Assembly: GCA_001600815.1 (NCBI GenBank)
Contig: BCKZ01000019.1
Location: 249,981-313,980 of the forward strand
DNA length: 64,000 nt
Reading direction: 5' to 3'
DNA from: Alloascoidea hylecoeti
Lineage: Eukaryota
The position numbers and the translations under genes are program-made. Below, in pieces: positions 4,851-63,078 of the stretch. Under the pieces are notes generated by a model. That model was not told where the DNA came from, did not search any database, and saw only the letters and a program-made list of their open reading frames with translations. How positions within the stretch are numbered: position 1 is the stretch's first letter; each line of letters opens with the position of its first letter.

Positions 4851-4923
4851 GGTCTAGTGGTGTAACGGTTATCACGTCTCGTTTACACCGAGGAGGCTCC
4901 GAGTTCGATTCTCGGCTGGATCA
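4851..4923 (+). tRNA. tRNA-Val(UAC)
   Basis: Cloverleaf with anticodon arm TCTCG-TT TAC AC-CGAGG, T-loop GTTCGATT and downstream T runs. Confidence 0.95.
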
Positions 4924-5013
4924 CAATTGAAAGATAACAAGGTTCTTTATTCAAAACATTTTTTTCGATCATATTTTTTCATTAGCCCCTTCATTTCTTT
5001 TCATATTTATATA

Positions 5014-5481: not shown

Positions 5482-5489
5482 CTCTTCAC

Positions 5490-17799: not shown

Positions 17800-18284
17800 T
17801 GTTTAATCAATTGATCAATTATTCAATTGAAATTTGAATTGAGAGAATGAAAAAAAAAAAAGACTTGGATAGTTTAAAATAAGAAGAAGATAAGGGGTAA
17901 GAAAAAGAAGAAATCGGAAAGGTAGATCCGATTCTAAAAATATCTGATGTTTATTGATCAATTGTGGTTATGCGGCCATACATAACAATTATAAACTTAA
18001 CAATTAGAAAAACATTAAATACTATAACTATAAATAATAAAAATTATAAACATGTTAATTTATATACTATTAATATAATGTATTATTAAATATTAAAACT
18101 TTCTCAAATATATATAATTATATAAACTTATTATATAAAATAAAGATATAAAGATAAAAACAGAATATAAAAGATTAAAATAAAAAGATAAAAGATAATT
18201 AATTTAAAATGTAAAAAATTGGAAGACAAACAATTAAAAATCAAAGACAAGTTTATAGCAATATTAATTAATTTTTATCAAAAA

Positions 18285-20623: not shown

Positions 20624-21840
20624 TCAATTAATAACCCTTCTGTCTTCTCCTTCAGGCTGATTTTGTGTCTGATTTCCATTTGCATTTTGAGTCGTAGCGC
20701 CTCTTCTTTCGCCTTTCCATTTCTCTTGCATCTTCATCTGTTCATACTGTATAACAGTCCAATCAAACAGACTTCCATAATAATTCTCTCTTTTATAAAA
20801 ATCATCAAATAATGTCTTTAAATATAAATAATCAGGGCGTGCATTGAAAGCCAATGATCGACAATAACTAATATATCTTTCAAATTCTTGTGGTAATCCT
20901 CTACACAAAGTAGCAACTGGAGTTGACATTTTTTTGTCCATTATTCGTTCATATTTTTGTTTTTTAGTATTTGCTTTGAGTCCTTGCCATGGTAATGAAC
21001 CTTTACAAAAATAAACAAGCATATAACCAAGTGATTCCATATCATCTCTTCTTGATTGTTCATAACCCATATGTGTATAAATACTAGCATATCTAGCTGT
21101 TCCTGTTAAGCTTTTATGTTCTCGATAAGGAATATGGACATTTGTTCTTGGATCTCGAAATCTTTTTGCTAATCCAAAATCAATAGCATAAACCTGTGTT
21201 GATCTTCTACCAACTCCAATTAAAAAATTATCTGGTTTAATATCTCGATGTATAAAACTTCTAACATGAATATATTCAATTAATTTTAAAAGTTGCAATG
21301 CTAATAAAACAACTGTTGATATTGAAAATTCTCGATTACAAAAGTTTAATAAATCTTCAAGTGATGGTCCTAATAAATCCATAACTAGGATATTATATCC
21401 TAATTCTGTTCCGTACCAGTGTATATTTGGTATTCCGGGGACTCCTGCAAGGGATTTGTATCTATAGTTCATTAGTCATGATTCATAAACCATAAAAGTA
21501 AATAAACATACACTTTGGCTTCATATTCCAACTGTGGATGCCTTGCACCCACTTTTTCTAACTTAACGGCAACTTCCTGGTCCCATAAGATATTACTCCC
21601 TTTAATCATATTAGAATCACCATAATCATCATACTCATCATATTTTATTCAAAATTCAAAACATACCAAGAAAAATCTCACCAAAAGAGCCACTACCGAG
21701 CTTGCGCTCAAGTCTATATTTATTACCTATAATCGTTTCCACCCTATAATCAACAATAAAAAGAAAACAAGATTTAAAACAATAGATTAGATTATGAATA
21801 TTTTTTTGGGGGTTAGTTGCTTTGTGTATAATACATACAT
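20624..21840 (-). CDS. casein kinase I, Hrr25/delta-type, 4 exons: 21839-21840, 21667-21743, 21512-21599, 20624-21461 (334 aa)
   Basis: Spliced product [25 protein letters not shown]…[11 protein letters not shown]…[10 protein letters not shown]…[11 protein letters not shown]; all three donors are GTATGT. Confidence 0.88.
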
Positions 21841-23206: not shown

Positions 23207-25625
23207 ATTGTTATGATATTATTATTATAATTAAGGTGAAGTTGAAATAGAAGTTTTGTTGATGTTAAGTTATGGAGTTTCGTAAGCAACTTTTAAAAAT
23301 GCTTGGATTCGGTTTAATAAAGGAATGAATGAATGAAGAAGAAGAAGAAAGGGAAAAAATGAGAAAAATAATAACTTATTTATATCATGAATTAATGACA
23401 AATAAGTTTAGCTATAAATTTTCTATGATGCATACATATAGGAATAATGGAGAATTAATTATAACGTTAACGTATATTAAACAGGGTCTACCTTAAAATT
23501 AATTCGTGTAATTGTAATTTTCAATTCAGCCTTAAGGGCGCTTGTTTTATTCAAGGAAAGAATGATTCTTAAAATTAAACAAAACGTGGATTTAACTAAA
23601 GCTAATTAAAATGATAATGATATCATGAGTTGTTATGTTATATTTTTGGTTATAGAAAGAAAGTCTCACCTCTTCCCGATTCTTTTTAATAGATAGGTCT
23701 TAATATATGCTAATGAAGACTTCAAAGATAAACACTTTTTAATTTTAATATTTTAATAAGACTTTTTGCTATAATTATCTAAATTTAATGAATAAGTGTA
23801 TATTAAGGCCTATCGATTTTATACATAATAATTAATATTATTATAAAAGTGGTATAAGGCTTACTGTTGAATTTATAGTTTACGCATATGCATACTCCAT
23901 AGCTTGTTAATGTAGTCCTATTATGAGTCCTATAGCATAAAATGCTTGAAAGGATAAAATAGTTCATAATATCTTTCTCTGGGACTAGGCGATAAGACCA
24001 GTAAGATATCGCCGTTTGATAATGAATTCTAACCTTGGCTAATACCTGTTTTAAACATCAAGACTTGTTTTTCAACCCATTCCAATTTCAAGACCTATCA
24101 ATATACAGCGATCCACAAAAGCAATTTTTAAGGACTCCAACCCAAATGCATTCAACCCATATGCATCCATATTGAATATTACACATATTTGAATTCACAT
24201 TACATCGCGATTGGTGCTGTTTCAGGATCAATAATTCCAAATTTATACTAATTTATACTATATGGGCTTTTGTATTCATTCACTCAGGCGTGATGATAAT
24301 AATATCGATATGTGAATCTTTTAAAATTTTTACTAGTGATGTCCTATATAAACTAGTGAGTGTTCTTATAGGTATAGCTTAACATTTAATATCTATTGAA
24401 TGAATATTATAGGATTTTGAAATTTCAGACTATAAAAAAATACCTGGATCTCTAGCTAGGCTTAAGTTGTATCCCATCACACCATCTTTTTTTTTTTTTT
24501 TTGAGCTTTATATAAATCATTAGTTAAGTTAATTAATATCATCATATGTTTATGCATAAATTTGTAAGGAATAGAAAAACAACTAATAATATAAATTCTT
24601 ATAAGCACATATTAGACCGTTTAATCCTTAATTAGTTAACACAACCAAAAGTGATAAAAAGAACCTTTTTTATAAATAGTTCTCCTAAATAGTAGTTATA
24701 AACTATAAATACGGAGATCTGCATACTTATAGGTCTACTTGTACCACGTTATAATCTCAGCTACATGTTGTCTCTACAACTCTTTTCATGTTATTTGCAA
24801 TTGAATAATTTACTGACTTGAATTAAAGGTTTACAGCTAGATCATATAATCTCAAAGGCTTAGGAGTTAAAACATTAGAATGGGTTATATGAAGTTCTCA
24901 ATTCAATGTCTTAGCCCACTCATACCGTTTAACTCGTGCATAATAATTTCCATTAGATCTAGATTAAAATGGATCGATTAAACTATCAGTTGCTAAAACC
25001 AAAGAGAAATTCATCATGCCTTACAAATCACAAAGGTTACTACATTATAATTTAGATATTTTGTTATTATAACATATTTTCTTTGAGTCTCATTTAAGGT
25101 TTCTTTCGAATTCTAGATATAGGTGTATGCCAGTATTTAGTCACGGACCACACCATTCAATCCAGAAGATTCTGTGATGGAACAATTAAGCCGATAGGAA
25201 ATACTTTTATCGCATAAGAAGGACTTACTGATGGAACGGCTGCTTATCTGCTGCATACATTTGAGTTCTGTCTCGAAGCCACGCAAAAAAGTGACACAAT
25301 CCATCAGAAAACTTGAATGTGCCTTCCTCTATAGGTAACTCAGGTATGACGTGAATTTCTAAGATTATGCCTATTTTTATTTAAAAAATAACATTGATGA
25401 AATCATGTAAATGGTTATTTATGCGAATAGTATGTCTCCATCTTTACGAGGCCTTCCACTTGATACTCGTAGAAGACACATGTATTTAACTCCCTAAAAA
25501 TAACTTCCTAAAATTCAAACTAAATAATATACTCTATCTTCCGAAATTTTTGTATGTTTTCACCCATATACCCATAAAAATATATAATTAAGTGAAAGTA
25601 GTAATCATTAACAAACTTTCAATAG

Positions 25626-26903: not shown

Positions 26904-27622
26904 TGATTACATAGATGTGTTGAAGATAAGTTTAAGAGGTGTTTTTAATTGAAGGTCTTAAGAGGTTTTTGTGTACCAACATAACATTTAATGCTACATC
27001 ATGTAGCAGTTAAGAATTTTGCAATATTTCTGTGACATAAACAGTTATTATAGAACTGTGAAATTTTCTTATACTTATATGAAAATCACAGAGATTTCTG
27101 AATGATTTCACCAAAGACAATTCCTTCTGATTAAACGAAATTTACTATGTCCACACTCCACATCTAGAGCCAGGTATAAGCTTATAATTTTGAATAAATT
27201 GATGGAATTTAATGTATGATTTAACCCCACCTGAATATATCAAAAAGTTATTACTGATTGGGTCTATTTTATGTGAATATAATGTCAACAAAATCACAAC
27301 TTAATATTAGAATATTCGAATGTTGATATCCTTAGTAACTTGATACATTATACCTAGCTATATAGTATATATTAATAGATATAGCAATACCATGGTAGAA
27401 TATAGGGCTTTATAATTTAAATTTAAATTTATATACAATAAGAGTCAGTGTAGTACTAAATATGACCTTTTATCACAAACAGAGTTCTAGAAGTAAAACA
27501 TGCATATATAATTGTTAGTTTGGTGATAAGTTTAGAACCTTCAAGTAGATCACTTAAAACTAAATCTTTTGTGTGAATCAACGTTACACCAAATAGACGG
27601 TGAGGACTTTCTACATTGAGGC

Positions 27623-36310: not shown

Positions 36311-37129
36311 TTTGTTAATAGAATTTGTAGAATTGAAATGATGTTGATTTAATGTTATTAGATGGTCAATCGACACAACTTTCAACCCTGATGCTGATGG
36401 TTTAATTAATGAATAATGAGGAAACGGAGGAATTCCCCTTAATTTTTGAAATCTTTTTAATTTGATAATTGAAATTTTTGATAAGATATAAAAATAAGTT
36501 TATTTAAATCAAAAATGGAAATGTTTCACTTTTTCAAACATCCTTTCATTTTTTTTAATTCTTGCCATTTAAAATTATGTGCCATATAAACTAATATAAT
36601 GTATTCAATTGTTCCAAATCTTCTTTTCCTTCGCAAATCATTTTGTTTAGCTAGTGATCTTTTCCAATGAAATGTATGATTTTCTTAGTTTTGCAATGAT
36701 TGAATATGTGTTTTTCCAATCTACTTCATTTTTTAGTCGATTTGAAAGTATCCTTCTATCTTTTTATTTATTTTTTCTTTTTATAATAAGTAAGATATCT
36801 ATTGACTCAATAATCTAATATTGCTGAACGATTCCTGGAGGTCTACCCCATTGCCATTCCATATCATCTTTCCAATTTGTTAAGTCGTTAAAAGCTCTCG
36901 AGTATACGCTCCATCTTTTATTTTCATGTATTTGTAGTGATCCTTTACGATGCATTGATAATTTTCGTGTTGTTTGATTGTAATCTGCTTTGTATCTATT
37001 TTGCAAAACCCTTAACATTAACAGCCCAATCATCCTTAAAATATTTTGAATTATCATTTACTAAAGCTTCTTATGACTGATTTTAATCTCTATGCGAGTA
37101 TAACATACAGGAGGATATAGAGAGGTGGC

Positions 37130-37660
37130 TATTAAGTCAAAAATCACCAAATCAAATACGATGGGGAAAACACCTGCAAGCTTACCTTGAAACAACAAAA
37201 ACAGAGAAACCCACATAAAATAAACACCATCAACCCTATACTTGACGAATATAGCATTAAGACACTATGATCAATTGGAAGATCAGCCGATCATACCAAA
37301 CTAACACATCTAAAGGAACGTAATACAAAGGATTGGAAAGAATGGTGGGTCACATTATATCGAATGAATAAGAGGGAACCAGGATCGGTAGATTTCATTC
37401 ACAGGTTAAATCCCCGACATCACACTCATCACTGGAGTCCTACTTCATCGGAGCACAAGAATGGTAATCTAGATAAATGCATCTTATGCTTACAACCACG
37501 GGTATAAACTGAAGAACATACACTCAACAATTGGCAAACTATAACAACACTGTTCTGTTGTGCATACTTTGTTTATAACCAGGAATAGGAACAGAGGAGC
37601 ATATTTTTAGTCATTGTGAAATTAAGACAATGATATTAATAAGATTAATGGGTAATGATA
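37130..37660 (+). mobile_element. degenerate LINE ORF2 C-terminal fragments (family C-like)
   Basis: WKEWWVTLYRMNKREPGSVDFIHRLN, KCILCLQP and CILCL*PGIGTEEHIFSHC (CCHC finger). Confidence 0.65.
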
Positions 37661-37664
37661 TATT

Positions 37665-38215
37665 TGTACTCTAAGTTGTATTCCAAATTATTTCATGTAG
37701 CTCAGCTCTTTAATTATTAAATGATTTCTATCTTGGGACAAATTACATCTTCCAATGTTACATCATTACCCATTAATCTTATTAATATCACTGTCTTAAT
37801 TTCACAATGATTAAAAATATGCTCCTCTGTTCCTATTCCTGGTTATAAACAAAGTATGTATTTATTCAAAGAACCATTTGAATATTTTATTGATTTAAAT
37901 TCCTGCTGATGTGAAAAGTTCCTAAGATTCAATCTGTGGATAAAATCCGCTGTTAAAGGGTCTTTTTATGAAAATTTTCTATGATTTTCCACCGAACCTC
38001 TCCTTTGGTGCCTGTATTTATTTTTATTTAACCGATTTGGTATGATTGGTTCCAGTGTCTGGTTAAAGCGATTACCAGCTTGTCGGAAAGAAAGTAGTGT
38101 TCTCTAACGGCATAGCATGATTAGCATCCCATGTTTTCACGTTTTCACAAAATTCATAAGCGGCGTGTTCGTCTAAACTTGGTATTATTTGATTTGCTAA
38201 CTTCACTTCATCCAC
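37665..38215 (-). mobile_element. degenerate LINE ORF2 C-terminal fragment (family C-like)
   Basis: KDPLTADFIHRLNL followed by ILCL*PGIGTEEHIFNHCEIKT on the minus strand. Confidence 0.65.
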
Positions 38216-38250
38216 AATTGTAGATTATAAAAAAGTTTATAATAGAAGTG

Positions 38251-38640
38251 TTTTTTTTTTCAGGTGGCCTAGGTTGGGCGCTGCATGGGATGATTCCCTG
38301 CTTGAGAAGTTGCTGATAGGGAGCTATTTATTTGATATGACCCCAAATAGAGCATAAACAACCCTCCCGACCCTCCTAGGACCCCCTAAACCTAGTGATG
38401 ATTCCAATCTGAATCCCTCAGACGTGATCTCTGACTCAATTCAATTTTGTAAACAAATGGCAAAAGAAAGAAACGAGATCATAGCACTTCCTTATCACAT
38501 TCTAAATCCACGCTCGCAGCTGAACTTATTGTTTTCTGAAAGCAATTCGGAAATGGTTTTGCTCAAATACATAACATTTACGTATCACGAGCTCCTCTTC
38601 ATACACAACTCCTGAAATCGAAAGATCCGTTATTTCGTGG
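38251..38640 (-). mobile_element. probable LINE 3' end with poly(A), related to family A
   Basis: Ends GGCCACCTG+A10, similar to the family A terminus AGCCACTTG+A tract at about 38803-38819. Confidence 0.5.
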
Positions 38641-38651
38641 TTCGTGGGTAA

Positions 38652-38790
38652 TCAAGTGACCATTAAGGCTCTATATTAAACTGCTTTTTCTATAAATACT
38701 ATATTTATAACCAAAAAATTGTGAAAATAAAAAGACCTATTGCTAATGTTATAGGTTCACTCTTTTTTGAGTAATGTTGTTACATTTTAT
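38652..38790 (-). mobile_element. second copy of the family A 3'UTR
   Basis: Near-duplicate of 38811-38950. Confidence 0.8.
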
Positions 38791-41625
38791 TTTATTTTTT
38801 TATTTTTTTTCAAGTGGCTATTAAGGCTGTATATTAAACTGCTTTTTCTATAAATACCAAAAATTGTGAAAATAAAAAGACCTATTACTAGGCAAAAATA
38901 CCTCTTACTAATGTTAGAGGTTCACTCTTTTTTGAGTAATGTTGTTACTTTTTATAGTATTATTGTCACCATTTCCACCTTCTTACTCAATTAATACGAG
39001 TAAAGAATGTCTCATGTATACATCTTTCCTATTTTTTTTTTTTTTTTCCACAGCACCTAAGTGATTCAGAACAAAGCTTTGTGGAGTCTCTTTCAATCAT
39101 ATTACTCCATTGAGATGCTGATAAACTATTCTCCTGTTGATAGTATCTTCTGTGATATTTTCTAACTAAAAAAACGGTTACCGCTCTTACTATTAATTTT
39201 TTTCTTTCCTTATGATTAAGTCAAGGAAAGATTTCACTTCAATTTCTTTTTCTTTTAGATCTACACTTTTTGGTTAGAGGACCATATTTTCTTTGTAATT
39301 TCACATGTAGAGAATACATGTTCAAAGGATAATTCAAATTTATCATAGCAAGGACACCTTTTGTCTTTGAGGTTGTTGTAAAAATGTAAAAATAAACCAC
39401 TGCAGAATATTTGATAATCATCTATAACGTTTGATAGATAAAGGTTGTTTTTATGGATAATTTTCCATAGCAAACCCCATTTATTGACACCAATTTTGTA
39501 GGTTTTTTCCAATTCATATGGTATTAATACTTTTTGATTATTTGCTTTGCAAATGCTCCTCCAATTGAATTTGTCGAGTATTTCATTTTGTAAACCAATA
39601 AAGTCCTCTACGTTCAAACTTTGGGAGTTTGCTGCTTTATCTATCAATTCCATGGAATGAATGAAATCTTTAATAGACCGTAGACTTTTATTTTTAATAA
39701 ATTGTATGCTTATGTCACCAACTGTTGTGGTTTCCCAGAAATGGGATAAGTATGTGTTCCAGGGCTGGATTATTTTTAGATTTTGTTTGAAGTATTGAAG
39801 GTATTGCACATTTGCTGTCGAGAAATTTTCATGAAGATACTTATTATTGATTATTAGCATTTGATCCCAATCCAGGTGTAATAAATTATCATTTTTAGCA
39901 TTTTTTCCTTTTTCTATTATTTTATTTGCTAGTATTGAAGCTTTAACTCCATGATATATCATTTGTTCCCTGATTGTGATTTGGAGGTCATCATCTTCAT
40001 TGGTTAGCAAGGATGATAAATGATAGGGATGTCGGCCTTTCTGTTGAACCATTAGGTCTATCAGACCATAACCTCCACTCATTGCTGGGGTTGTTAATAC
40101 TTTGAGCGATACTTGTCCATATGTGCCTATATTATTTTTAATTATTTTCATAATTTTGTTCAAGATACTTTTTGGGGGTAGAATAAATTCCATCAGAAAA
40201 AGCATCTTGGACATCACGTATATATTTACTATTATGCACCTGGTTCTTATGTTATTATGGTGGTGAAATAGATATATCAATCTTGATTTAATATTTTTTA
40301 TCATCTCTTCCCAGATTATTCCGGGGTTAACTCCTCTACCCATTGATATTCCCAGATATTTGAAACTATTAACGACTTTATACTTGTTTAATGGTGATTG
40401 ATTACTTATAGATCGTTTGGAGTCCATTGGAAAGTATATTTTTGTTTTCCCATCATTAACCACCGATCCAGATGAACGTTTGTAAAGAGATAATGCCCTA
40501 TCAAGGACGTCTTTGTCGTTTCTGGAATTTATAAATATTGAAAGGTCATTGGCAAATAAGCTCACTTTAAGCGAGCGGATGTTTTTTTTTTTGCAGATAT
40601 AGAGACACCTTCAAGGTTGAGTTGTAAGTATTGAGATAACGGTTCGATCGCCAAAGCGAATAAACTAGGTGCAATAGGGCTGCCTTGGCGCAGCCCAGAC
40701 CGTAACAGGAATGATCTGGACTGGACGCCGTTTATTAGCACCGATCCTGTTTGGTTTGTGATGGACCCCATAACAGCTTTTATAAAATGAGGACCCAGGC
40801 CTAAATGATCAAGAACTCTGTGTATGTATGAGGCCTATCATATCGTAGGCCTTTTGGAAGTCCACCAGTACGAGCGCCTGGTGTGGGTTACGGGTAATAA
40901 ATTTAGTATCTAGATCAATGAATAACTAGCTAAGGTGAATATTGGTCGATATAGATCTCCCAGGAATAAAGGCTGTTTGGTGTTCTGACACAATTCCTTT
41001 TAGTACTGATTGGAGTCTAATGTTTAAAATCTGGTGCAGGATTCTTATATCTGAGTTTAGGAGAGAAATAGGGCGATATCCATTTATGTCACCTTTTTTG
41101 GCCTTATCCTTCAGTAATACAAAAACAGTATATGTCATAAAATTAGGAATCTCATCTGTCAGCATAGAGTTTGAAATTTTCAAAAAATCATCTTTTATAA
41201 AATTAAAAGCTTGCTTATAAAAGAAAGTTCCAATACCGTCCTGACCTGGGACACTATCTCGATTAGATCGGACAATTGCGTTCCAAAGCTCATTTAAGGT
41301 GATAGGGTAGTTTAGATGCATCAGATCATTGGATATCAGATGGCCGGGTTCGAAGGATGAGAATAATTGTGTTATAGCTCTATCGTCAATTTCCTTTTCA
41401 TGAAACACTTTTTAGGAAAGATATTCAACAACTATATTTTCCATTTCGCAATGATCATTCCATCCATTAAGTGAGGCTATTTCCATCCTTTTTGTCCGAT
41501 ATTTTTGGAGACGTAACAGGTCATTTAATGATTGCCCTTGAATGTTAGTTTTTGTTATAAGTTGAGCTTTTTCTAATTTATTTAGATTTAAGGACCAGAC
41601 CCCTTTATTCTTAAGTATAAAAGTC
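38790..41625 (-). mobile_element. 5'-truncated, frameshifted non-LTR retrotransposon (L1-clade-like, family A): RT, CCHC finger, 3'UTR and A-rich tail
   Basis: PGQDG, YRPISLLNSD, QTAFIPGRSI, DFQKAYD, GLRQGSPIAPSLF, FAND (YADD position), FKYLG, GGYGL and CPC…EHVFSTC motifs; endonuclease region absent. Confidence 0.92.
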
Positions 41626-41627
41626 AG

Positions 41628-41692
41628 TTATTGCCACCATTTCCAACTTCCTACCTTACCAAAAAGTTATGAAAATAATAAGACCTAATGTT
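41628..41692 (-). mobile_element. short rearranged family A 3'UTR remnant
   Basis: ttattgccaccatttccaactt and gaaaataataagacctaatgtt match 5331-5352 (reverse complement) and 38868-38980. Confidence 0.65.
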
Positions 41693-41750
41693 TAACATCG
41701 CAGTGCAGGCTATTCTCACCTTAATAAAAGAAGGAAGATGAAGGAAAAAA

Positions 41751-41822
41751 CTCCGATGCGGGGAATCGAACCCCGAACTGCCCGGTGAAAGCGGACCGTG
41801 CTAGCCGTTACACTACATCGGA
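41751..41822 (-). tRNA. tRNA-Glu(UUC)
   Basis: Reverse complement TCCGATG…GTCCG-CT TTC AC-CGGGC…GGTTCGATTCCCCGCATCGGAG followed by a T6 terminator. Confidence 0.95.
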
Positions 41823-41859: not shown

Positions 41860-42928
41860 ATCTATATGGTTAGGAAGAAAGTTTCAACAATAAGAAGATT
41901 GCTCAACTATAAGAATTCTAAAGAAGATGATGTTAGGAAGCGATAGAATTGGGATCAAAATTATTGATCATAAATCCAAAAGATAATCATATAGAAAAAA
42001 ATGGGGCTTTTATCAAAAAGGCACTAGAGCTAAGGAAAAATATTAGATTTGCAGGGACCAACCACCACAAATATTAAATGAGATTGATTGGGGGATTCTA
42101 ATATCTAAAAACTTAATAAAAAAAATTTACTTTTAAGGTGGTCGTCTAGGTTCATGTCAACCCTGAATCAATAAAAAGATTTAGGGATCTAAAGAATAAA
42201 GAATTATCAAATAATTCTATTAAAACGATTAATAAGAAATTTTACAACAATGAAAAGAGAGTACTAAAACCGAACTATTTTTTGACAATCTAAAAGAAGA
42301 AAATTGGCAAAAATGGGGGAGTCATATTAAAAAATCATACAAAAGAGACCCTGAAGAAACACAATGGATTCACTTTTTCAGCTTAGGATACGTGAAACAT
42401 ATGTTTCATATTAACAAAAATGCAAAAGAGTGGTGGCATAAATTAGGTATATGTAGTCTTTGTCAAAATGGAAAAGATGATATTTATCATTTATTTGAAG
42501 ACTGTAACACAACCAGAATATTACACAAAAATATACTAGGAGACAAAAGTATAGGAAACAAAAATCTAATAATAGATACACAAGATAATAATATAAAAAA
42601 AGAAAGGCCTTTTCATCTCAAAGGTGTTAGAAATTAGGAAAAGTATCAAATTTGGAGGAACACCACCCGAAAACCTAAATGAAATAGATTGGGGTATCTT
42701 ATTTTCAAAATATTTAAGATAACATTATAAAATAAAAATACATACCGAAAATAAAATAAGCAAAGTGGTAAGAAAAAGAGATATAATAAAAACAAATAAG
42801 AAGAGAAATGAGAGAGAAATAAAGAAGAAGAAGAAGAGGTTTTACACGCATTGAGTGATTTCCTCAATTTAATAATAGAATATTTAAAATTAATTAGATA
42901 TTTTAAATTATGTAAAGCTAAAAAAAAA
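41860..42928 (+). mobile_element. 5'-truncated LINE fragment (family B) upstream of tRNA-Glu
   Basis: NWQKWGSHIKKSYKRDPEETQWIHFFSLGYVKH…CSLCQNGKDDIYHLFEDC (CCHC finger); ends ATGTAAAGCT+A9; 5' boundary approximate. Confidence 0.8.
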
Positions 42929-43588
42929 TTTGATTTCCTCAATTAATAATACAGTTTAAATTATTCAGAAGCTTTGGTTGGAAATTATGAGTAAAATAAA
43001 AAATAAATAAAAACTCGTTAGCATGTGGAAAAGCGGTATTGTTCATGAGTCAAGAATACGAATGAAAACTTTAAAACTCGAGAGAATGAGAATGTTATTT
43101 TTGGTCCTTACATATAAATCGATTAGAAAAGGCCCATAATTATGATTTTTTTATTTGAAATTATATGTTTCCCGAATGTAACCCATCCAGTACATGTATA
43201 TGATATTTTAAAAAATGTATTTGTATGGTTATTCATGTCTAAACCGGTACCATTATTATGGTTAATGATCCACTCGATAAATATATTTGCAATATTAATT
43301 GCATATTTATATGTATACTTAATTACATTTATAATCATATTCAATATACCGTTTAACCCTATAGCTATAATGATCTCTAGCAGAGCTCATCCTAGGCCTT
43401 ATAATCTAATAGTAATATCCATAATCATTGGAGTATCGTATCCTTTATCTATTAGCCTACAAGCTTAGTTATAAGACTTCACAAATTAGAGAAACAACAA
43501 AACAAATCAGATTAATTAATAATTTTTAGAGTACTTGTACTTCTATATTAATTTTCTTCTACCAGCGCTAGCTAACTATATATCGAAA

Positions 43589-44884: not shown

Positions 44885-46129
44885 CTTAATTGTTAAAATC
44901 CCAAAGATTTGCAAAGGACAAAAGAATGGTTTTTATATAATATTCATAGCCACAAGTAATTGCAAAAGTTAAGGTGATATGATCTGATCTTGAGGCGAAT
45001 CCCCAAACGTAAATGTATTTTAACTTTATATAAGTACTACATTTATGTTGTTGTATGCACATTTTGAATACCGCACCATATTAAATTCAAGTAACAATAA
45101 AAACTGTGATAAATAGAGTTATCTATTTAAGCTTTAATGAATGACTAATTACCAAACATACTAATTAATTAAAACATTAATCGAAATTTATCAAACTTTA
45201 TTATATCTCACATAACGAATCAAGTTATCTGAATCAGTAAATAAGATAAAATGGCTGAGACTAGTAACAACGATAGAACTACTACTAATACCCCAATTTG
45301 AGGATTTAAGATCTGAATTTGATGAGTTCAAAACTGACATCATTTCCTTATTAATCCCAAACGAATACATAACATCACGATTCATATTTAAAAATAAATA
45401 GTTTTAAACGAAGACAAAGATATAAAATAGAATTGCAATCTTCCAACTGAGCAAGCATAATAGGTAGATAAAAATGAACCATAATAATATACAAACTAGT
45501 GAAAGATAAAAACATTATTTAGCCATAGATCAACTCTACATACATAAATGCTACAATTAGTTAGTTCTATCACAGAACAATCTATGTATGTGAACGGCTT
45601 CTATATTCAGCTGCGGCATTGGATTTTATCTTTTGGATCGAAATTTTAAAGTCAGAGTGAACTAAATTTAACAGTAACATCAAACTAAGTATAATATTAT
45701 CGAAGACCCTGTTGTCCTCCAAATTTTGCATTGAATAGTGATCTAACTCCAAAAGACAAAATCCAATCCTGAGAGTAAGATATATTCCCTACTATCGATA
45801 TATCTCTGTGTTCAGTTTGGTGTTCAGTATAATGAGATTAAATAGATTTTAATGATGGCATTTATAATAATATATATATATATTACTTTTTTTTTGTAAT
45901 TCGTAGCTTTAACAGAACAATGTAGTGGAATAGGTCTATATGTAGTATATGGTTATGCGGTCTAGTTTTGTAGAAGTTTTCTGTCATTTTATTAAACCAA
46001 CCATATTAATATATGTTGAACATGTAAAGTTCAAGCCTGTCATCATCTTTCTCTCTTATACAACTGTTAGATGATAAGTTGGTCCGAGACCATGTCAATT
46101 TCCAACCGGCTTCTAGTGTAAGGAACCAC

Positions 46130-51007: not shown

Positions 51008-53260
51008 ACGGTTTGCAAAAGCATATTCTTATATATTTTTTCTTATATAATCTAATTTTATATGCTTTGTAAAAAATTTATGTTGTAGTATAATAAGGAA
51101 TAAAAAAATTCTTAAATAATTAAAAAGTGTACCAGTATTCTCTATAGGTTAAAGTTCACGCTCTTTGGAAAAATCCTTTATTTAAACAAAAGAGATTCTT
51201 TTTGAATAGAAAGATTAAAGAAGACGTTGATCATTATTTATTTTAAATGCGTGGTTTATATTTCTATTATTATCACGGTTATTGGCAGTCGTTTTATTAT
51301 TTTTGTTGATCGTTGATCGTTGATGTTGTTTTTGGTTTTAATGGTGACGACTCTTGAAATATATATGTAATTATCTTCAATCGTTTGTTTAATTGATGTA
51401 ATTAATGTATTTTTAATATCAGTTTCTAATGTTAAGACTTGTATTAGGGTCATCACGATTTTCTGATGGTCTCATGATTAAGTGAAGTCATTGTATTAGT
51501 TGATGCTCTTTTTACATTCATTGATATTCAACAAATTTAAAGCATGAATATAATTTTGTTTAATTGAGGAGAAAAAAGCTTCTGATTGTTTATACTTATT
51601 TACTATATCATCAAAAATGTATATAAATCGATGAATCATTCACAATCAATAAAATTTAAAGGTCTGTGCCTACACAATAAACTTTGGACTCTTTTGAATA
51701 TCATATTATTTCCAATTAACATGGATTTTTTTGTTAAAACATATTGGTGAGCAAATAAATATGTAAAATAGTCATAGTATTTCAGTGGGTTTTAGTATGG
51801 CTACGTAAGGGCCCATACATTTAAAAAGTGGATTTCGCCGAAGGTTTCTGCGAGATCACTTTTAAACCTGAAAGAAAACAGAGAAAAGAGGATATGTGAG
51901 AATCTTTGATCGTATAACTATAGCGCTATATGCCTAATTGCTAATAGAAACCGTAGATTATAGTAACTGTATAGAAAATATCAATGGGCATATAAATATG
52001 GCAAAAACGGTATAAATATTTCAGATTAAAATGAATATCAATTCATGTAAGACTATCAATTATGATGAGAAAATAACATCCATTTAAAAATGAGAACCCA
52101 ATTTATTTTTCATAAATCTGTGAACTAATTCCTAAATTTGAACGACACATCCCTTTATGAAAAGAAAAGAAAAAACCTGTACTGAAATAATAAGAATTCA
52201 TAAAAGGATATCATCATTAATATCAACACTAACTTAATCAACAATTACACAATTGTATTTAAAAGGTACAATTTTCTTTTTAATTTAAAAAGAGGGTTTA
52301 AAAAGGTTGAGAACAGAAGTTTCCCGGAATGCAAATTAATATGAGATTTATGGGGTTAGATATAAGAAAGATTGAGATCCGAAGACTATGAGTGTAAAAT
52401 TTAAGAAAAAGATGGTAGTCCATTCCATTCAATTAATATAGTTAGATTGCCAGTAATTAGACATTTTTTTGATTGAGAAGCTTAAGTCTTGATAATAGTT
52501 GTGTTTTCTTACCTCTAGAATTGATGCGAATGCATTTTTTCCTGTAAATTTGATTTCATACTATTACCGACAATATTCATGTAATTTTATGTTTTTTTTT
52601 TCTTTTCGATTTATTTATAATCTGTCTTTTAATATTAATTATTTTTGATATATATTCTTTTCAGCTATATTTAACCTTTATCCATGCCTTACATTGTTTT
52701 ATACGAATTCTAATGTTCTGCTGTCTGATCAAAAAATTATACTTACTACAGGATGTTCTCTTTAATCAGAGGAAATGGAGCCCAAATCCGATTGATGATG
52801 AACTTATAGCTAAAGATATTTCCATCAGATACCTCTATAGAGTCGGCAAAAAGACCTTTTCCAATGGTATCCGCTTTCAATTAAATTTACCATCAATATT
52901 ACAATTCCAAGGTTCACTATCTATTATAACTGTATCTACAAATATGACCTTATAATAAGCCAAGTTATAGATTCCCAAAAAAGATTTAGCTTTGAATTTG
53001 GATTCGAAACAATTTTTGTTTTCTTTCGCTTTTAAATATAAATGATATACTTGAAGGTTTCAAATTCAACACTACATTCAAACTAATTAATATAGAAGTT
53101 GGGAGTCCATGTTTTACCTCTAAAACTCCGTTTCGGATAAAATATCAGTATTATTGCAATTACACACACTCATAGGTATATAAATTATAAAGTCATCTAT
53201 TGTAATATGGTATTGTTATATAAGAATTAACATAATAATATAATTTATCACCATCTAATA

Positions 53261-54766
53261 TTAAGTTGTGATTTTGTTGACATTGTATTCACGTAAAATT
53301 ACAGGAACTGAACTTGCAGGTGAACTACCCCATTCAGTAATAACTTTTTTAATATATTCAGGTGGAGTTAAATCATACATTAAATTCAAGATATTTAACC
53401 CATCAATTTGTTCATAATCACCTAATGGATCCTGTTGAATTATACTTTTGTTAACCTTACTATTATTATTATTATTTTGATTTTGATTTTGATTCTTCTT
53501 TTGTTTAGGTAATTCCTCTTTTGCAGCAATTGGTTGTTTTAAAAGTTCTGCCAATGTGTATCCTTTCTTATTTGGTTTTTCTGAACCAATTATTGCAATA
53601 TCATCAGGATCACCAAGTTCATTCATTGTAACACTATCTAGTTGAACCTTTTCACTAAATTTAATACTTTCAGAACATACTAGAACAGGGATATTTCTAT
53701 TTGTAGCTGTCATTGCTACTAATGCTGTACCAACTCTAGCATATAAACGACCATTTGAAAGCATTGAATGAGCACCAAGGAAGACAGTATCAACACCATC
53801 AAGAATAGAAGCCAATGATGTAATTAATACATAGACACATTTAACCCCAGCTCCAACTAATTCTTTAAGTAATTGTTTACCTTCAAATAGTGGACGACTA
53901 TCAACAATAATAACTGTAAAATCTTTTTCTTGTTCTTTGTGAGCATGTATAAAAGCATCTTTTAAAACAGTAGAATTTGAAAATGTAAGAACTGTACTTC
54001 CATTATGAATATGTTCATTTGCTGTTTCAACAATAACTCTACCAGCCAATTCAATTTTTTCATTTATAAAACTATTAATATCATTACATAAATCAGATTT
54101 TGCTTCAGAATCAATTTTATCAATAGAAACTTTTGAAATTCGTTGTTTTAACCATCTAATAGCATTACCCATTGGAACACTTAAAGGACGTGCTAATTTC
54201 AAATAATCAATTTGATGACTTAAATGAGCAGTTAAATTTCTACTTAATGTTGTTCCATGTGGAGTAAAATAATCATTTATAACATCTTTAAAAGTAATAA
54301 GCATTTCTTTACATCTTTGAATAGAACCAACAATTGAATAAGTTGAAATTTTTAAAGCTAATTTTAAAATTGCTGGATGAATAACTTTTGCTAAAGCTAA
54401 TGGTGATAAATCAAGTTTTGTTTCAGGATTATGTAAATGACCAAATAAAACAAGTCCTTTTGCTTGTGGTTTAAAAGGTGTTTGATTTTTTATAACGACA
54501 TTTGTATCAACGATTTTTGATTGTGATTGTTTTCCACTTTTAGAATTTCCTTCATTGGATTTAGGATTTGATTTAGAAGATTTTTCTGATTGGTGTGGTG
54601 ATGGAGATCCTACTTTACTTTTTTGGCGTCTTAGTAATTTTTCCTTTTTTTTCAACTCCTTCAATTCCTTATTTGATAACGTTTTTTTACCCTCTGGAGC
54701 TGGTGAAGCAGTTGAAGAAGGAGGATTTGATGGAGCAGAAGCAATAGAAGGGCTTGTTTCGGACAT
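53261..54766 (-). CDS. GCD2: translation initiation factor eIF2B delta subunit
   Basis: IHPAILKL, ARPLSVPMGNAIRWLK, NELGDPDD and YDLTPPEYI motifs. Confidence 0.95.
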   Translation of the reverse strand: MSETSPSIASAPSNPPSSTASPAPEGKKTLSNKELKELKKKEKLLRRQKSKVGSPSPHQSEKSSKSNPKSNEGNSKSGKQSQSKIVDTNVVIKNQTPFKPQAKGLVLFGHLHNPETKLDLSPLALAKVIHPAILKLALKISTYSIVGSIQRCKEMLITFKDVINDYFTPHGTTLSRNLTAHLSHQIDYLKLARPLSVPMGNAIRWLKQRISKVSIDKIDSEAKSDLCNDINSFINEKIELAGRVIVETANEHIHNGSTVLTFSNSTVLKDAFIHAHKEQEKDFTVIIVDSRPLFEGKQLLKELVGAGVKCVYVLITSLASILDGVDTVFLGAHSMLSNGRLYARVGTALVAMTATNRNIPVLVCSESIKFSEKVQLDSVTMNELGDPDDIAIIGSEKPNKKGYTLAELLKQPIAAKEELPKQKKNQNQNQNNNNNSKVNKSIIQQDPLGDYEQIDGLNILNLMYDLTPPEYIKKVITEWGSSPASSVPVILREYNVNKITT

Positions 54767-54933
54767 GATTTATTACTTCTGCTTAGGATGAATCATTTTA
54801 AAATGACTGAAATATTCAAGGTCGGGTAACTCCAGGTCATTGAAAATTAATGTAGCGTTACAAGCTTATAAGAAAATGTTGCTGATTATCGAATATATAC
54901 ACTACTATAATCTCAGCTACAAAAGAATATAAT

Positions 54934-56157: not shown

Positions 56158-58499
56158 ATTTAACGATCTAATTCCCTTTGGGCTGAATTTTTGAAACTGT
56201 GAAATCTGCTGAATTTCATGTTCTGAAATTTACGCAATGTTTGCATGGGAAGCAAGATTGATTACGAATATTTCAGCACGTACTAATTATAATCGTTACC
56301 ACTCACAAGAAAAATGACTGAGTAATTTGAAATTTATATAGAGTCAAGTTATGCAATTTCATACACATTGGGGAATTCAGAGAAACGGAGAATTTGCAAT
56401 TTTTTATTATTGTTATATTATAGCTAGACCTAGGCTTAGAGGCCATTTTGTTACCCGGATTGCCAAACAAGTGATTCACCAACGGAACTACCTATATCCA
56501 TAGGATCACTTCGTTTTATTCTTGTGCTGAGTACCTTTGGATCCGAAAATATTTATAAAAGAAGGAAGTCTAGGATGAAGTATGAAAAGGAAGCCGTGCT
56601 TCACTGCTTAATGTGGCTAACAGTAAACTTAAAAGCGTAATTTTATATTTGGTAGTTGTTTTCAATATATATATATATACTCATCCCCAGGATCAACTGA
56701 AAATAAAGACGAAGATGTAAGGTGTTATTTCCCTTGCTCCTTTACTGAAGTTGGGAATCTGTTTACCAAAATTTGAATTTTCTCTGAGAATTAATTAATT
56801 TCTAGAGTGTTTTACAATTGGCAATCAAAATAAATAAATATAATGAACACATAAACTTATAATTATTTACACAATCCCTACATGTAATTATATTATCATT
56901 CAGAAGATATCAAAGATTTAAGTCGTTTATAATTGTATTTTTAGTTTTAAGTTTAAAAGATTCTTAACAAGCTTAGATATACTTGGTCTCCTTATTATGT
57001 TCATAATCATTTATGTGTGATAAGTAAATAATTTTAGTGCAAACGAAATCGGATCAATAATTGACCTGTAGTTCCTCGCATTGTAAGCAAATATTAACCA
57101 ATTACATATATAGTAAAATGTATAACAGATAGTGTCGAGTTGGGATTTCAGCACATCAGCCATAACGAAAAGTACAGCGTTGAAGAATAATTTAAGCTAA
57201 GCTTAAAAGATAAAAAACAAGTGGTTTTTTTTTTTTTTTTCAAAAGTCATTCCAAGTGATGATATATTGACAGATAATACATCCTACATATAGCTATAGT
57301 TTAACAGAAACTTAGATATATACTCATAATTGATTATTTCTTAACATTGAAAGTCGATCGCGATGCGGCTAAAAGTCAAAGATAAAATTCTGATAGTATT
57401 AAAGGCCGACATGTTTGTAAATAATGTAAGGAATTGTTCGTCATATATTATACCAATATTTAAATTATTTTTGGATTTCATTTCATATAAATCTTTATAG
57501 TAATATAAATACACCGAGCCTTGAGATAATCACTAGTGATACGATAATTACTGAAATGATTATAGTTAGAATATAAGACTTAATAAATCCGACTTCAAAT
57601 TACTATTACTAGAGTAATCAATCTTTATATCTACATTCTTACTTTGAAAATATAAATCTAAACCACAATCTCTTTATGTTCATTCAATAGCTTAAGATCT
57701 ATAATCCAGTGTAGTATATATATACGCCTGCTAATACCTCAGTTTCAGCGGAGGTACTACCTTCCTCGGCAAATAGTTGAGATATTGCTTTAGCTGTGTA
57801 GTTCATAAGATTTTATATATAGTGGTTAAAAATCACTAAAGATGAGATCTTCCCAAATAAAGTTTATCAATAGCATTAGGTGTCTTAAACCAAACATTTA
57901 AAGGAGATTGACGCCACAATATTAATAAAGCTTCAACTTTTGCCCTGTAAAAGAAACAAAATAATACAGCATAAAAAAGGTTGCATAAGATTACGTGTTT
58001 CTTTGTGATGCCGGAGACTTTTTTCCTCTCAAGCAACATAAGTGATGTTGGAAAGCGTCAGATTGATGAGAGAAGCATGGGAGCATCAAATCTAGAAGGT
58101 GAAGATTGAAGCACACGCTCAAGAAACGTTTCGGTCACATTCTAGATTAATAATTCGGCCCCATGAACCAGTAATATTCGTCATCTCAATTAATTTCGGC
58201 CACCTTGCAATAAATTCAAGCTTACTAAAACTTTTATGACCATGGGGTACCGCGGTAATATATATAGTGCTAATGGTTAATAGAGTAATAGATAATTAGT
58301 TATGGAAAGTTAGTTGGAAGGCTCTAAGTAACGGAAACTGATTACATCAATAAGAGATTAAGTAATACAAGAGAATCAACTTTCATTAAACTTATAAGAG
58401 TACTTAGTATTGTAAATAGATCTAGAGTCGCCGTTCGAGCTAGAAATGCGTTCGGTCTCGGTCTTGTTCATTTCAGAGGGTAGGCAATACACCGTTAGG

Positions 58500-58650
58500 G
58501 TAAACAATTCCATATTGTTAACTCCTCAAATAAATGTTGGTTATGCTCAAAGGATCCAGAATCAACTGAACATCTTATCAGTGATTGCCAGATGGGAAAA
58601 ATGTTATGGAAAAAATTAGAAGAGATATTGGGACCCATTATAATCGGGTG
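58500..58650 (+). mobile_element. LINE CCHC-finger fragment (distinct family)
   Basis: NKCWLCSKDPESTEHLISDCQMGKMLWKKL. Confidence 0.7.
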
Positions 58651-58986
58651 TGTAATAATATACAGAACAGACCAAAATATAACTGCTGCAGGTCCACCGT
58701 TTGCATTAAACGTAATAGCCTGTTTTGTAACATACATAATAATAACTTATACTTTTGATATCATATTCTTATAAATTTTTTTATTTATAACTAGGCAATC
58801 TTTCCAATTGATCTTATAATACTTTTCTCTGCTAGTGAATATTGTGTATAATATGATCAGTGAAAATATTGGCAAATCATCTCTTACCCAGGCATCAGTA
58901 TTAAACGGTGTTGAACTTAAAACAACATTATCCACAAAGAAGGAGATGATATGGAAATCCCATCACTATTCCGATCAGCTAATACA

Positions 58987-60500
58987 ATGGCAGATGACGA
59001 ATCAATGGAATTTACAGTATTTTCTGAAGAAGAAAAAGCTAGTAAAGATGATGAAAACGTTGAAGGTTTGAATTTGGAACGCATAAGTACAACAAGTGAT
59101 TATAATGACCATCACCAGGATCCGGACACATATAAAATAAGATATAAACGTTTAACGCCACAGGAACTAGATTTATTTAAACGACAAGAAACTACTAAAA
59201 TCACGGGAATACTGGAAGTTGATGAATCAACAGCTTTAAAACTACTGGATTTCTGGTCCTGGAATAGTGATCGATTAGTTAAGTCATATTATGAAGATTA
59301 TAAACGAAGCTGGTGTGTTTTTAAACCAAGATAGAATTCCAACATTTAATGGAATTAAAATCATAAAGGAACAACCTAATTTTATGTGTCTTATATGTTG
59401 TGATGATGAGGATTTGGTATCCATTTTTTTACCATGAGAACATAAATTTTGCCTCAATTGTTATCAACCTTATATCGAAAGAAAAATCGATGAGAAAAAA
59501 ATCAGTTTATTAAAATGCCCTGATCCAAGTTGTAAAGTTACATTATCGGAAAATGATATCAAACAAATAGTTTCAGAAGATTATTTTAACAGATATTTGA
59601 AATATTCTAGTCAATCATTTGTTACAAGTAAAAAGAATATTCATTGGTGTCCATTTCCCAATTGTCCAAATGCTGTTGAATGCGAAGTTTTTAAACCTAA
59701 TCATTTAAACCTAATCATTTACAGAAAATAATTCCTACAGTAAAATGTATAACAGGTCATGAATATTGTTTTGGTTGTGGATTAAATGAATCTCATGAAC
59801 CAGCACCATGCAAACAAGTTGATTTATGGTTTAAAGCTCGGATAGTTTTAAGAACAAGAGAATATCCAAATTGCCACTCTCCCATAGAGAAAAATGGGGG
59901 TTGTAGTCATATGACATGTCAATCCTGTTGTCATCAATTTTGTTGGCTTTGTTTTGCTCCGTGGCTTTCTCATGGAAGTCGAGGTAATAAATACGTATAT
60001 AATAAATTTTATACTGGTAAAGGTGATGAGAATGAAGCAGAGAAAAGAATGAGTATGGAAACCTCTATGTTAGAATTAACAAGATATTTATATTATTACA
60101 ATCGTTATAAAAATCACGAAGAATCTAATAAAATCGATAGAAACTATTGAAAAATAAAAGAAAGAAAATGGAAATGTTATTAGATGATGGTATGTCATGG
60201 GTCGGCGTGCAATTTTTACAACAATCATTTTAACGAAATGTAGGAGGAAAACATTTAAATGGTCCTATACTTTTGTATTTTATTTACCCAAGGAATAAAA
60301 ATTTAACAGCTATATTTGAAAAAAATCAAGCAGATTTAGAAAGAGCTGTTGATAATTTAGCTGAGATGTTTTTAAAACCAGTTAATAAATTGAAAGATTT
60401 GAAGATTAATATGCTTGATGCTTCAAGATATGTTGAGAATAGATGAGAAGTTCTATTAAAATTTGCTTAAGAATTAAAGAAAGGTAGTTGGACTTTTATT
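58987..60500 (+). pseudogene. Ariadne/Hel1-type RBR E3 ubiquitin ligase pseudogene
   Basis: Acidic N-terminus, RING1 remnant CLICCDD…HKFCLNC…CPDPSC, IBR WCPFPNC, RING2 IEKNGGCSHMTCQSCCHQFCWLC, Ariadne RYLYYYNRYKNH…NQADLE; several frameshifts and stops. Confidence 0.85.
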
Positions 60501-62614: not shown

Positions 62615-63045
62615 TTATCCACAACAGAAAGTAGTAATTCTAGTCCAAAATTTATTATTTTTCGATGATCCTGAATCATTTCTTGTATTTGTAACCGCCA
62701 ACTGTTGTTGTTGATGTTGTTATTTCAATTTTAATTAACTTATTTCATGCTTACATATCCGATATGCAGTGCAGATCAATCATCAAATGATCTACATATG
62801 TTTCAGATTTATATTAAACTACATGCCTTGCATATTAGATATGCAGGGGTTACGTGGTCATTCATATACTACAGCAAGCCCCTTAATATTATTGCCACCT
62901 CCTTATTATTATTTAGCCTATATAGTTACATATATAAGACAGTTAAATCCATTGGATTTAACTCTCTACTTTTTCTTATTCCTATTTAATATACTATTTA
63001 CTTTATCTTTTTTACTCTATCAGTTTTACCGATTAATAGTTGATT

Positions 63046-63078
<33 letters not shown>

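Follow-up and report, generated by a model that had tools for sequence, protein, structure and literature searches.

L1-like retrotransposon tails around two yeast tRNA genes are consistent with tRNA-directed insertion and with layering by lineage

Results

LINE tails lie on every flank of two tRNA genes

The sequence-level reading covers two tRNA loci within the window, by which we mean the whole 64-kb stretch of DNA that was analyzed. The best named relatives of a host gene are from Saccharomycotina yeasts (54–56% identical), and the host is not a dictyostelid. Both tRNA genes are intact and have T runs on their 3′ side, and their spacers are unrelated between the loci:

4851–4924, plus strand: tRNA-Val(TAC), the second locus
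41751–41822, minus strand: tRNA-Glu(TTC), the anchor of the pile, with a T6 run directly 3′

Behind tRNA-Glu, moving outward from the gene, the pile comprises the following pieces:

41657–41690, minus strand: S1, a family A 3′UTR sliver starting 61–64 bp behind tRNA-Glu
41628–41654, minus strand: S2a, 97–102 bp behind tRNA-Glu, taken to be an older A stub's 5′ half
about 38792–41627, minus strand: 2.8-kb L1-like copy of family A with reverse transcriptase (RT), thumb, zinc finger, 3′UTR and poly(A)
about 38652–38791, minus strand: S2b, read as that stub's 3′ half, with no poly(A) run at its end
38251–38640, minus strand: B, a poly(A)-ended piece that aligns globally, with free ends, to the zinc-finger/C-terminal region of A
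37665–38215, minus strand: C, the decayed tail of a LINE ORF2, zinc finger included and 3′ end lost
37563–37662, plus strand: inverted copy of 37759–37858, a fold-back of C (97/100 identical)
37100–37560, plus strand: C2, a C-lineage LINE tail (32 bits), its 3′ end lost
36775–37057, minus strand: D, an A-rich-ended piece with no significant match
36545–36720, minus strand: E, a further decayed C-lineage tail (9.9 bits)

A separate LINE lineage, U, was found upstream of both tRNA genes, and tRNA-Val is followed by pieces of the A and C lineages:

41894–42120, plus strand: U1, a LINE tail about 70 bp before tRNA-Glu, facing away from it
42125–42930, plus strand: U2, a LINE tail that carries a zinc finger and ends in poly(A) (zf-RVT E 0.0016; 44.5 bits)
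42932–43015, plus strand: U3, a short 3′ end with poly(A), of the upstream lineage
4467–4834, minus strand: U-lineage tail with poly(A), starting 17–56 bp before tRNA-Val and facing away from it
5008–5481, plus strand: A 3′ end, 84 bp behind tRNA-Val, with poly(A) and an ORF2 C-terminus whose frame is open
5482–5830, plus strand: C-lineage tail, decayed, abutting the poly(A) of the A copy (11.4 bits)

LINE tails thus lie within 125 bp on all four flanks of the two tRNA genes, a zone amounting to about 1.3% of the non-coding bases. The tRNAs sit in two of the three LINE-bearing intergenic regions (about 18 regions in the window; P about 0.02), and the majority of the window's long intergenic regions have no LINE match; one protein comparison covered 28 of 165 proteins, and the LINE-tail profile was built from 60 of 87 tails of relatives, with a reversed-sequence control maximum of 6.4 bits. 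A LINE relic at 58400–58790 has neither a tRNA nor a B box nearby. Neither the region at 58 kb nor that at 37.06–37.1 kb was found to conceal a tRNA or a B box, and no external B box was found 3′ of either tRNA. A tRNA-derived SINE was rejected on account of the intact tRNAs of two kinds, their T runs, the unrelated spacers and the tails that lie upstream too. A metagenome pattern scan returned a lone bacterial locus, without a tRNA or similarity to the window, which we attribute to chance.

The 2.8-kb copy is a dead L1-like element nested in an older one

The RT of the 2.8-kb A copy, supported by an RVT_1 match, and a weak zf-RVT match confirm the first-pass annotation of this minus-strand element as a LINE. 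The best solved-structure match of the RT is human LINE-1 ORF2p (E 4e-13), with R2 at E 1e-3; judged by these matches, the A RT is closer to L1 than to R2, which would class the element as L1-like. The copy is 5′-truncated and dead, carrying at least two stops, several frameshifts and an altered catalytic motif. Endonuclease and ORF1 are absent from it, and every LINE copy in the window is 5′-truncated; an endonuclease match occurs in four of nine full-length relatives (about 30% identical), above cut-off in two. CCHC zinc-finger motifs of the zf-RVT type were found in A, C2 and U2, with Pfam zf-RVT scores below the Pfam cut-off (E 0.022 and, for U2, 0.0016), and the first search found no homologues of the C-terminal frame among longer proteins. 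A-run ends mark A at both loci, B, U1–U3 and U at tRNA-Val, and are missing from S1, S2b, C and C2.

The 5′ junction of the 2.8-kb copy lies 123 bp behind tRNA-Glu, inside the older stub S2, and the similarity of another contig to family A begins at 41629. For the A-type 3′UTR at 41628–41690 and at 38652–38799, 0 of 300 shuffles reached any of the match scores. Both stretches had been called as A-type, which stands; the first (41628–41692), however, is not a single remnant but two slivers, S1 and S2a, and the second (38652–38790) is not a separate second copy but the other half of S2. S2a is identical to positions 5331–5352 of the tRNA-Val A copy at 22 of 22 bases, and S2b resumes 0–4 bases after S2a, in register (about 1–2% by chance). 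Because S2a continues in register into S2b, we read the two as one split A copy; on the evidence of this register, the 2.8-kb copy demonstrably inserted into an older A copy, leaving S2a and S2b as its halves. The two A UTRs differ by separate indels and substitutions, and private changes in the shared UTR are more numerous in the 2.8-kb copy than in the split stub, so that divergence fails to confirm the nesting order. S1, which has lost its own 3′ end and poly(A), matches the tRNA-Val A copy at 27 of 30 bases (0/300 shuffles as good; about 10% diverged). Of the two pieces nearest tRNA-Glu, S2a is older than the 2.8-kb copy by nesting, and S1 is undatable against it. Triple nesting, with S2 inside S1 and the remainder of S1 ending S2b, was rejected because the letters of other contigs place the extra bases of S2b in the family. 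A hidden A sliver was not significant in either tRNA spacer (264/300 and 235/300 shuffles as good).

Outer, upstream and tRNA-Val pieces

B had been proposed as a relative of A. Its end-free global match to the 2.8-kb copy agrees with this (0/300 shuffles and 0/263 random loci as good), but its local matches to A are not significant (reached by 12 and 41 of 300 shuffles), and 61 of 300 shuffles equal its end-free global match to the tRNA-Val A copy. B is thus probably a distant A relative, a much older A-lineage tail, with modest support from these alignments. It is covered by one contig, and no close copy of it was found in the contigs of the sequencing runs. Pfam searches on three frames each of B and D gave nothing useful.

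The family C fragment at 37665–38215 scores 18.6 bits on the relatives' profile against the control maximum, which upholds its call as a LINE. C2, identical to C at 107 of 191 bases, faces tRNA-Glu, opposite to the rest of the pile; the pile had been described as a head-to-tail stack, which holds for most pieces but not for 37100–37560 and 37563–37662 on the opposite strand. Twin priming as the origin of the inverted segment is unsupported, as D does not match the C-lineage tails; later rearrangement may have produced it. The possible ORF2 tail at 36815–37057 is not sustained: profile, Pfam, and local and global alignments gave no significant match, and the sole protein match of D is weak, with a z of 5.9, a size also given by a control pair. 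E, which lies outside 36770–41692, the range of the earlier observation, matches C at the protein level (z 12.8), its nucleotide match not being significant.

At tRNA-Val, the A copy (5008–5472) is identical to the 2.8-kb copy at 423 of 462 aligned bases. The tail that follows it matches C globally at 103 of 176 positions (58%; score 103 against a shuffle maximum of 75), the local match not being significant (67/300 shuffles as good). The order A then C reported for this locus therefore holds for the lineages but not for one and the same C family, at only 58% identity. Upstream, U1 and U2 are identical at 132 of 179 bases, and the matches of U3 to U2 and to the tRNA-Val copy were equaled by 0 of 300 shuffles; U is known only from 3′ tails, and its start points are approximate.

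Contigs of the sequencing runs bridge the pile

Single contigs span 37829–38689 in runs X1 and X4, 37829–38669 in X2, 41194–41777 in X1 and, across the fold-back loop of C, 37580–37841 in X2; the bridging contig of one run differs at 5 of 861 bases. The bridged junctions of the pile are not assembly errors, as contigs from three runs span them. Run X5, a small share, was left out of the evidence. Two further contig joints place a tRNA-Glu-like 3′ end beside a C piece starting at 37932 (3/4 runs) and beside an A UTR piece at 38750 (2/4 runs). They probably represent other loci; the joints rest on matches of 30 and 26 letters, 80% alike and separated by unknown sequence, and are of a kind often caused by repeats. 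The 15 joints listed, out of 20, include no empty allele; these come from contigs, which drop rare variants. At five junction pairs, a search for target-site duplications found only 5–7-base words, away from the junctions.

Insertions share a window and an orientation, and their order is coarse

A-lineage 5′ junctions lie 61–64, 97–102 and 123 bp behind tRNA-Glu and 84 bp behind tRNA-Val. These four junctions, one of which splits an older copy, support the proposal that elements entered repeatedly within a narrow window on the 3′ side of the tRNA; their spread over 61–123 bp speaks against a single fixed point of entry. Eleven of the 12 assigned insertions face away from the tRNA (binomial 0.003, the pieces not being independent), and seven of the eight assigned downstream insertions share the tRNA orientation, the exception being C2. 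Lineages are side-specific at both tRNAs. This geometry and the nesting of the 2.8-kb copy are directly visible at the loci.

The A lineage is near and the C lineage far at both tRNAs. Summed contig depth, which is not copy number and comes from runs that share the locus, drops with rank over seven pieces (rho −0.86 to −0.89); S1 and S2a were omitted from this test because their bin holds the tRNA. Depth also drops from U1 to U2, and close relatives of the pieces thin out with distance, except that B, nearer than C, has fewer. No junction fixes the relative positions in time of B, C and anything farther out. The proposed chronological record therefore survives as a coarse age order by lineage, A near and C far, which is supported; a strict copy-by-copy record is not, because the nearest slivers are old, one segment is inverted, neither a target-site duplication nor an empty allele was found, and no junction fixes the order of B, C and the outer pieces. 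B, C and E may nonetheless follow one another in age.

Discussion

We propose, with a probability of roughly 70%, that these are tRNA-directed L1-like families, with A, B and C inserting about 60–125 bp behind the tRNA and U in front of it, layered by lineage. The downstream set, made up of A, of B as A's older relative and of the C group, would insert about 60–125 bp behind the gene, in its orientation, by target-primed reverse transcription, and lineage U about 20–70 bp before it, facing the other way. Since the window would be tied to the tRNA and not to sequence, a new copy would land within the 5′ part of older material or beside that part. It would push most of that material outward and might split an old copy, leaving slivers on the tRNA side; the outcome would be ordering by lineage, not strictly by copy. 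Active targeting to tRNA genes would account for the arrangement, and, as the analogy of TRE5-A suggests, the Pol III machinery may serve as the tether.

A strict record, in which elements use one fixed entry point, older copies are shifted outward and distance equals age, is unlikely. It would fit A near and C far at both tRNAs, the fall of depth with rank, the greater decay of distal pieces compared with the open frame of the tRNA-Val A copy, and the report that, where a tRNA gene already has an element, later ones integrate ahead of that element (PMC5006619, Table 1 footnote). Yet S2a is nearer than the 2.8-kb copy and older by nesting, the nearest piece, S1, is already about 10% diverged, insertion points are spread over tens of bases, an inverted segment interrupts the pile, and depth does not order B and C. 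Random insertion at AT-rich open sites, with harmless survival beside tRNAs, is harder still to credit: the relic away from any tRNA and a sample of two loci speak for it, but survival bias predicts no narrow distance, outward orientation or side-specific lineages, and most long intergenic regions in the window lack a LINE match.

We consider it quite improbable that a founder near the tRNA received later copies in its A-tails by Zorro3-like poly(A) or self-targeting, which would make distal pieces younger. Pieces at 5482, 42125 and 42932 do begin right after a poly(A) run, and the lack of target-site duplications is shared with Zorro3 and Ylli, going by the portions available of PMC3956500 and PMC5014426. 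The 2.8-kb copy, however, entered a UTR and not a tail, no A runs precede the first pieces beside each tRNA, decay is greater in distal pieces, and founders on four flanks and side-specific lineages would go unexplained. Least probable by far is that the pieces arose by tandem duplication from a single insertion or reflect an assembly artefact, for which the repeated A 3′UTR and the 100-bp inverted duplicate would speak. The two UTRs changed independently, the lineages are only 56–65% identical, which excludes simple tandem duplication, and contigs of three runs, one of them differing in sequence, bridge the junctions; the view that the pieces are separate insertions is borne out.

Our preferred reading, tRNA-directed families, has its closest parallels in dictyostelids. 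[quoted passage not shown] The A/C insertions share the downstream distance of TRE3 (TRE3-A to -D, Dictyostelium and relatives) at two loci, as well as the orientation in seven of eight cases; the TRE3 hosts are dictyostelids, whereas the host here is a Saccharomycotina yeast, and the likeness is one of geometry, so we do not file the yeast LINE as a member. Lineage U likewise resembles TRE5 and NLTR-B of Polysphondylium in lying upstream in opposite orientation, at about 17–72 bp (starts approximate), although its tails offer no ORF1, modules or RT for comparison with TRE5. Truncated TRE5-A copies frequently show target-site deletions (PMC3159450). In D. discoideum, 13% of tRNA genes carry both TRE3 and TRE5 (PMC5006619), and both yeast tRNAs are likewise flanked on both sides.

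Among yeast LINEs, Zorro3 of Candida albicans and Ylli of Yarrowia lipolytica are described, in the portions available of PMC3956500, PMC7175516 and PMC5014426, as L1-type elements with poly(A) tails, 5′-truncated copies and no clear target-site duplications, all features common to the LINEs here. By the same partial sources, which name no tRNA preference for Zorro or Ylli LINEs, Zorro3 targets poly(A) tracts and has poly(A) on both flanks, whereas the 5′ junctions of the 2.8-kb copy, S1, S2a and the tRNA-Val copy lie outside A runs; Zorro1/2 are subtelomeric, unlike these tRNA-flanking LINEs. Ty1–Ty4, Tca8/beta, Tyl3/Tyl6/Ylt1 and Tj1 also accumulate next to yeast Pol III genes, but they are LTR retrotransposons and all insert upstream (PMC5911963).

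The pile suggests tRNA-homing LINEs of a kind so far described only in social amoebae. The literature searched yielded no tRNA-directed fungal LINE, and a review places downstream-of-tRNA insertion only in dictyostelid genomes (PMC5911963); if the reading is true, fungi would here, within that literature, provide their first tRNA-directed LINE, and insertion downstream of a tRNA gene would be seen for the first time beyond the dictyostelids. A 2018 review suggested that insertion behind tRNA genes may harm yeast. We lean slightly towards the bolder view that a budding yeast independently evolved a full TRE3/TRE5-like system, with separate L1-like lineages for the 3′ and 5′ sides of tRNA genes and the 3′ habit kept through the C group, B and A. 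Kept across successive lineages, that habit would make tRNA flanks a layered, lineage-level fossil record, and the nested junction indicates that lineage and nesting, and not distance alone, should guide the reading of such piles. How TRE3 recognizes the region behind tRNA genes has not been worked out in the literature searched. A yeast LINE with the downstream habit would, if true, be a second, independent origin of it and could be assayed with a yeast as the host, a setting in which Zorro3 already transposes.

LINE copies behind tRNA-Glu

The window DNA is AT-rich and fungal, and the best named relatives of its coatomer gene are from Saccharomycotina yeasts (54–56% identity). ARAGORN and Rfam detected exactly two tRNA genes.

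Features around the two tRNA genes (A, family of the 2.8-kb LINE copy; U, lineage upstream of the tRNAs)
4467–4834 (−), U tail
4851–4924 (+), tRNA-Val (ARAGORN, Rfam)
5008–5481 (+), A 3′ end (Val copy)
36545–36720 (−), E
36775–37057 (−), D
37100–37560 (+), C2
37665–38215 (−), C
38251–38640 (−), B
38652–38791 (−), S2b, A 3′UTR
41627–38810 (−), 2.8-kb A copy
41628–41654 (−), S2a, A 3′UTR
41657–41690 (−), S1, A 3′UTR
41751–41822 (−), tRNA-Glu (ARAGORN, Rfam)
41894–42120, 42125–42930 and 42932–43015 (+), U1, U2 and U3

The 2.8-kb copy (41627–38810, minus strand) is a dead L1-like copy: a 5′-truncated ORF2 carrying stops and frameshifts, with a match to RVT_1 and a weak one to zf-RVT. Among solved structures, its reverse transcriptase is closest to human LINE-1 ORF2p (E 4e-13, versus 1e-3 for R2). 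At E up to 0.001 it has 262 relatives; among the 150 listed, four short proteins are 69–82% identical to it and all others at most 36%. A reverse transcriptase was found in 9/9 long relatives scanned and an endonuclease match in 4/9.

The first-pass annotation placed a short A remnant at 41628–41692 and another A 3′UTR at 38652–38790. Both are A sequence, but the remnant is not single, since 41628–41690 comprises two slivers: S1, which matches the late A 3′UTR at 27/30 positions, and S2a, identical at 41628–41649 to positions 5331–5352 of the Val copy (22/22). Nor is the second piece a separate copy, as S2b continues S2a in register, picking up at a position equivalent to about 5357 of the Val copy. 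Because the chance of two independent pieces meeting this closely is about 1–2%, we conclude that the 2.8-kb copy landed inside an older A stub (S2a plus S2b), 123 bp behind tRNA-Glu, with loss of 0–4 bases. No target-site duplication is left at this insertion; an A-rich stretch follows the insertion point, which would suit priming on poly(A) RNA. Counter to this order, private changes in the shared UTR, a handful only, are more numerous in the 2.8-kb copy than in the split stub; subfamily differences could yield the same excess.

Distal pieces and the tRNA-Val locus

Farther out, C is a tail with a zinc finger; in place of its 3′ end stands an inverted copy of its own interior (97/100), an inversion that a later rearrangement may have produced. 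Behind the inverted piece lies C2, a related tail (56% identical to C) on the opposite strand, so that the reported stack of LINE 3′ ends is a genuine pile but not a purely head-to-tail one. C and C2 face each other with their tails, neither retaining its 3′ end, at a 100-bp inverted repeat that is nearly perfect and encloses a loop of about 95 bp (37563–37858). E is a further C-like tail. For B, local comparisons resolved no relation to A; its end-to-end alignment with the A zinc-finger and C-terminal region, picked by eye, beats 300 shuffles and 263 random loci; repeated with the shorter Val copy, the test was not significant. D, compared for LINE kinship, could not be assigned to a lineage. 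From 37060–37100, C2 and D/E diverge in opposite directions, with a geometry like that flanking tRNA genes; a search for a tRNA relic there found none, and a lost tRNA gene would be speculative.

At tRNA-Val, a C-lineage tail comes after the A end. The claim that this locus repeats the order A then C holds for lineages but not for families, the tail being 58% identical to C.

Upstream tails, orientation and other repeats

The separate lineage U, which adds to a first-pass finding that had none of these tails, lies upstream of both tRNAs with tails directed away from them. Glu has three such pieces and Val has one, and they are 71–79% alike by BLAST. Altogether, 11/12 assigned insertions point away from their tRNA (S1, S2, A, C, C2, E, two downstream at Val, U1–U3 and U at Val; the count leaves aside B, D and the fold-back).

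A further LINE zinc-finger tail (58400–58790, plus strand; zf-RVT, E 8e-6) has neither a tRNA nor a B box in its vicinity and falls outside all tRNA-flanking families here by BLAST; LINE relics in the window are therefore not all tRNA-linked. It is adjoined from behind, in the same orientation, by the decayed remains of a RING-IBR (Ariadne-type) ubiquitin-ligase gene, a pseudogene interrupted by many stops and frameshifts (58980–60440, plus strand).

Several other duplications were observed. A 200-bp dispersed repeat with a remnant coding look (3885–4084 and 25247–25462, 70% identical; no Pfam match) has one copy 400 bp past the U tail of tRNA-Val, and two short pairs lie at 45160–45258 and 15179–15284 (78%) and at 61813–61932 and 18112–18239 (71%). 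Positions 27205–27564 (plus) are a 66–75% identical copy of 53031–53387 (minus), which holds the final codons and the 3′ flank of a gene at 53261–54769 that we take to be eIF2B-delta-like; this is possibly a truncated retrocopy, and no poly(A) was seen at it. The genes at 20624–21475 and 62998–63999, presumably casein-kinase-I-like, are ordinary paralogues (72% identical over 260 bases).

Public contigs

The stretch was present wholly or partly in 5/10 listed runs from three studies, one run possibly being the source sample, and four runs were compared with the window at 80% likeness. Single contigs bridge the C–B–S2b junctions in X1, X2 and X4 (5/861 bases different in X4), the tRNA–sliver–A junction in X1 and, in X2, the loop of the fold-back. 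Of 15 of the 20 joints, none omits just the 2.8-kb copy, so these joints gave no empty allele. Two joints, each across an unread interval, place a tRNA 3′ end next to a C piece at 37932 (30 letters, in three runs) and next to an A UTR piece at 38750 (26 letters, in two runs); the likeliest reading of these short joints is that they come from other tRNA loci neighboured by a C or A stub.

A and U1 had high summed contig depth, and U2 and C had less; B was covered at the level of one contig, and C2, D and E were covered least. Rank and depth correlated at rho −0.86 to −0.89 across seven pieces (S1 and S2a excluded), where depth is not copy number and pieces and runs are non-independent. Other contigs carried a different A copy that lacks 921 internal bases (on 40454–41629, three runs), U tails in tandem joined by poly(A) (on 42061–42906, one run) and an A 3′ end (38682) joined back to back with a U piece (42072) across an unread interval (three runs).

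Proposed mechanism and comparison with known systems

We infer that the tRNA gene, through a presumed protein basis of targeting, would position L1-like elements, which would insert by target-primed reverse transcription in the windows seen here, 61–123 bp downstream or about 17–72 bp upstream, the element's 5′ end facing the tRNA gene. This geometry, like the nesting of the 2.8-kb copy in the S2 stub, is observed. New copies would displace older ones outward, yet sometimes split them, and the age order would therefore be true of lineages and false of single copies. The proposal that repeated insertion leaves a chronological record is thus partly supported, at the level of lineages; the split S2 stub contradicts it for copies.

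In the parts of the sources consulted, TRE3 is described 40–150 bp downstream from tRNA genes and co-oriented with them, and TRE5 upstream in the opposite orientation, downstream insertion being said to occur in dictyostelids only (PMC5911963). A table footnote implies several elements at one dictyostelid tRNA gene, later ahead of earlier (PMC5006619, Table 1), so push-out as such is already known. Known yeast LINEs are described, in the portions seen, as having poly(A)-tract or subtelomere targets or no stated preference (PMC3956500, PMC7175516, PMC5014426); parts of further papers were also compared (PMC3159450, PMC13728883, PMC3747384, PMC4494074). No tRNA-directed fungal LINE was found in the literature searched, which covered papers outside subscription. 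Judged by insertion geometry, these A. hylecoeti LINEs appear to work like TRE3 and TRE5; given the different host, they are not classed as members.
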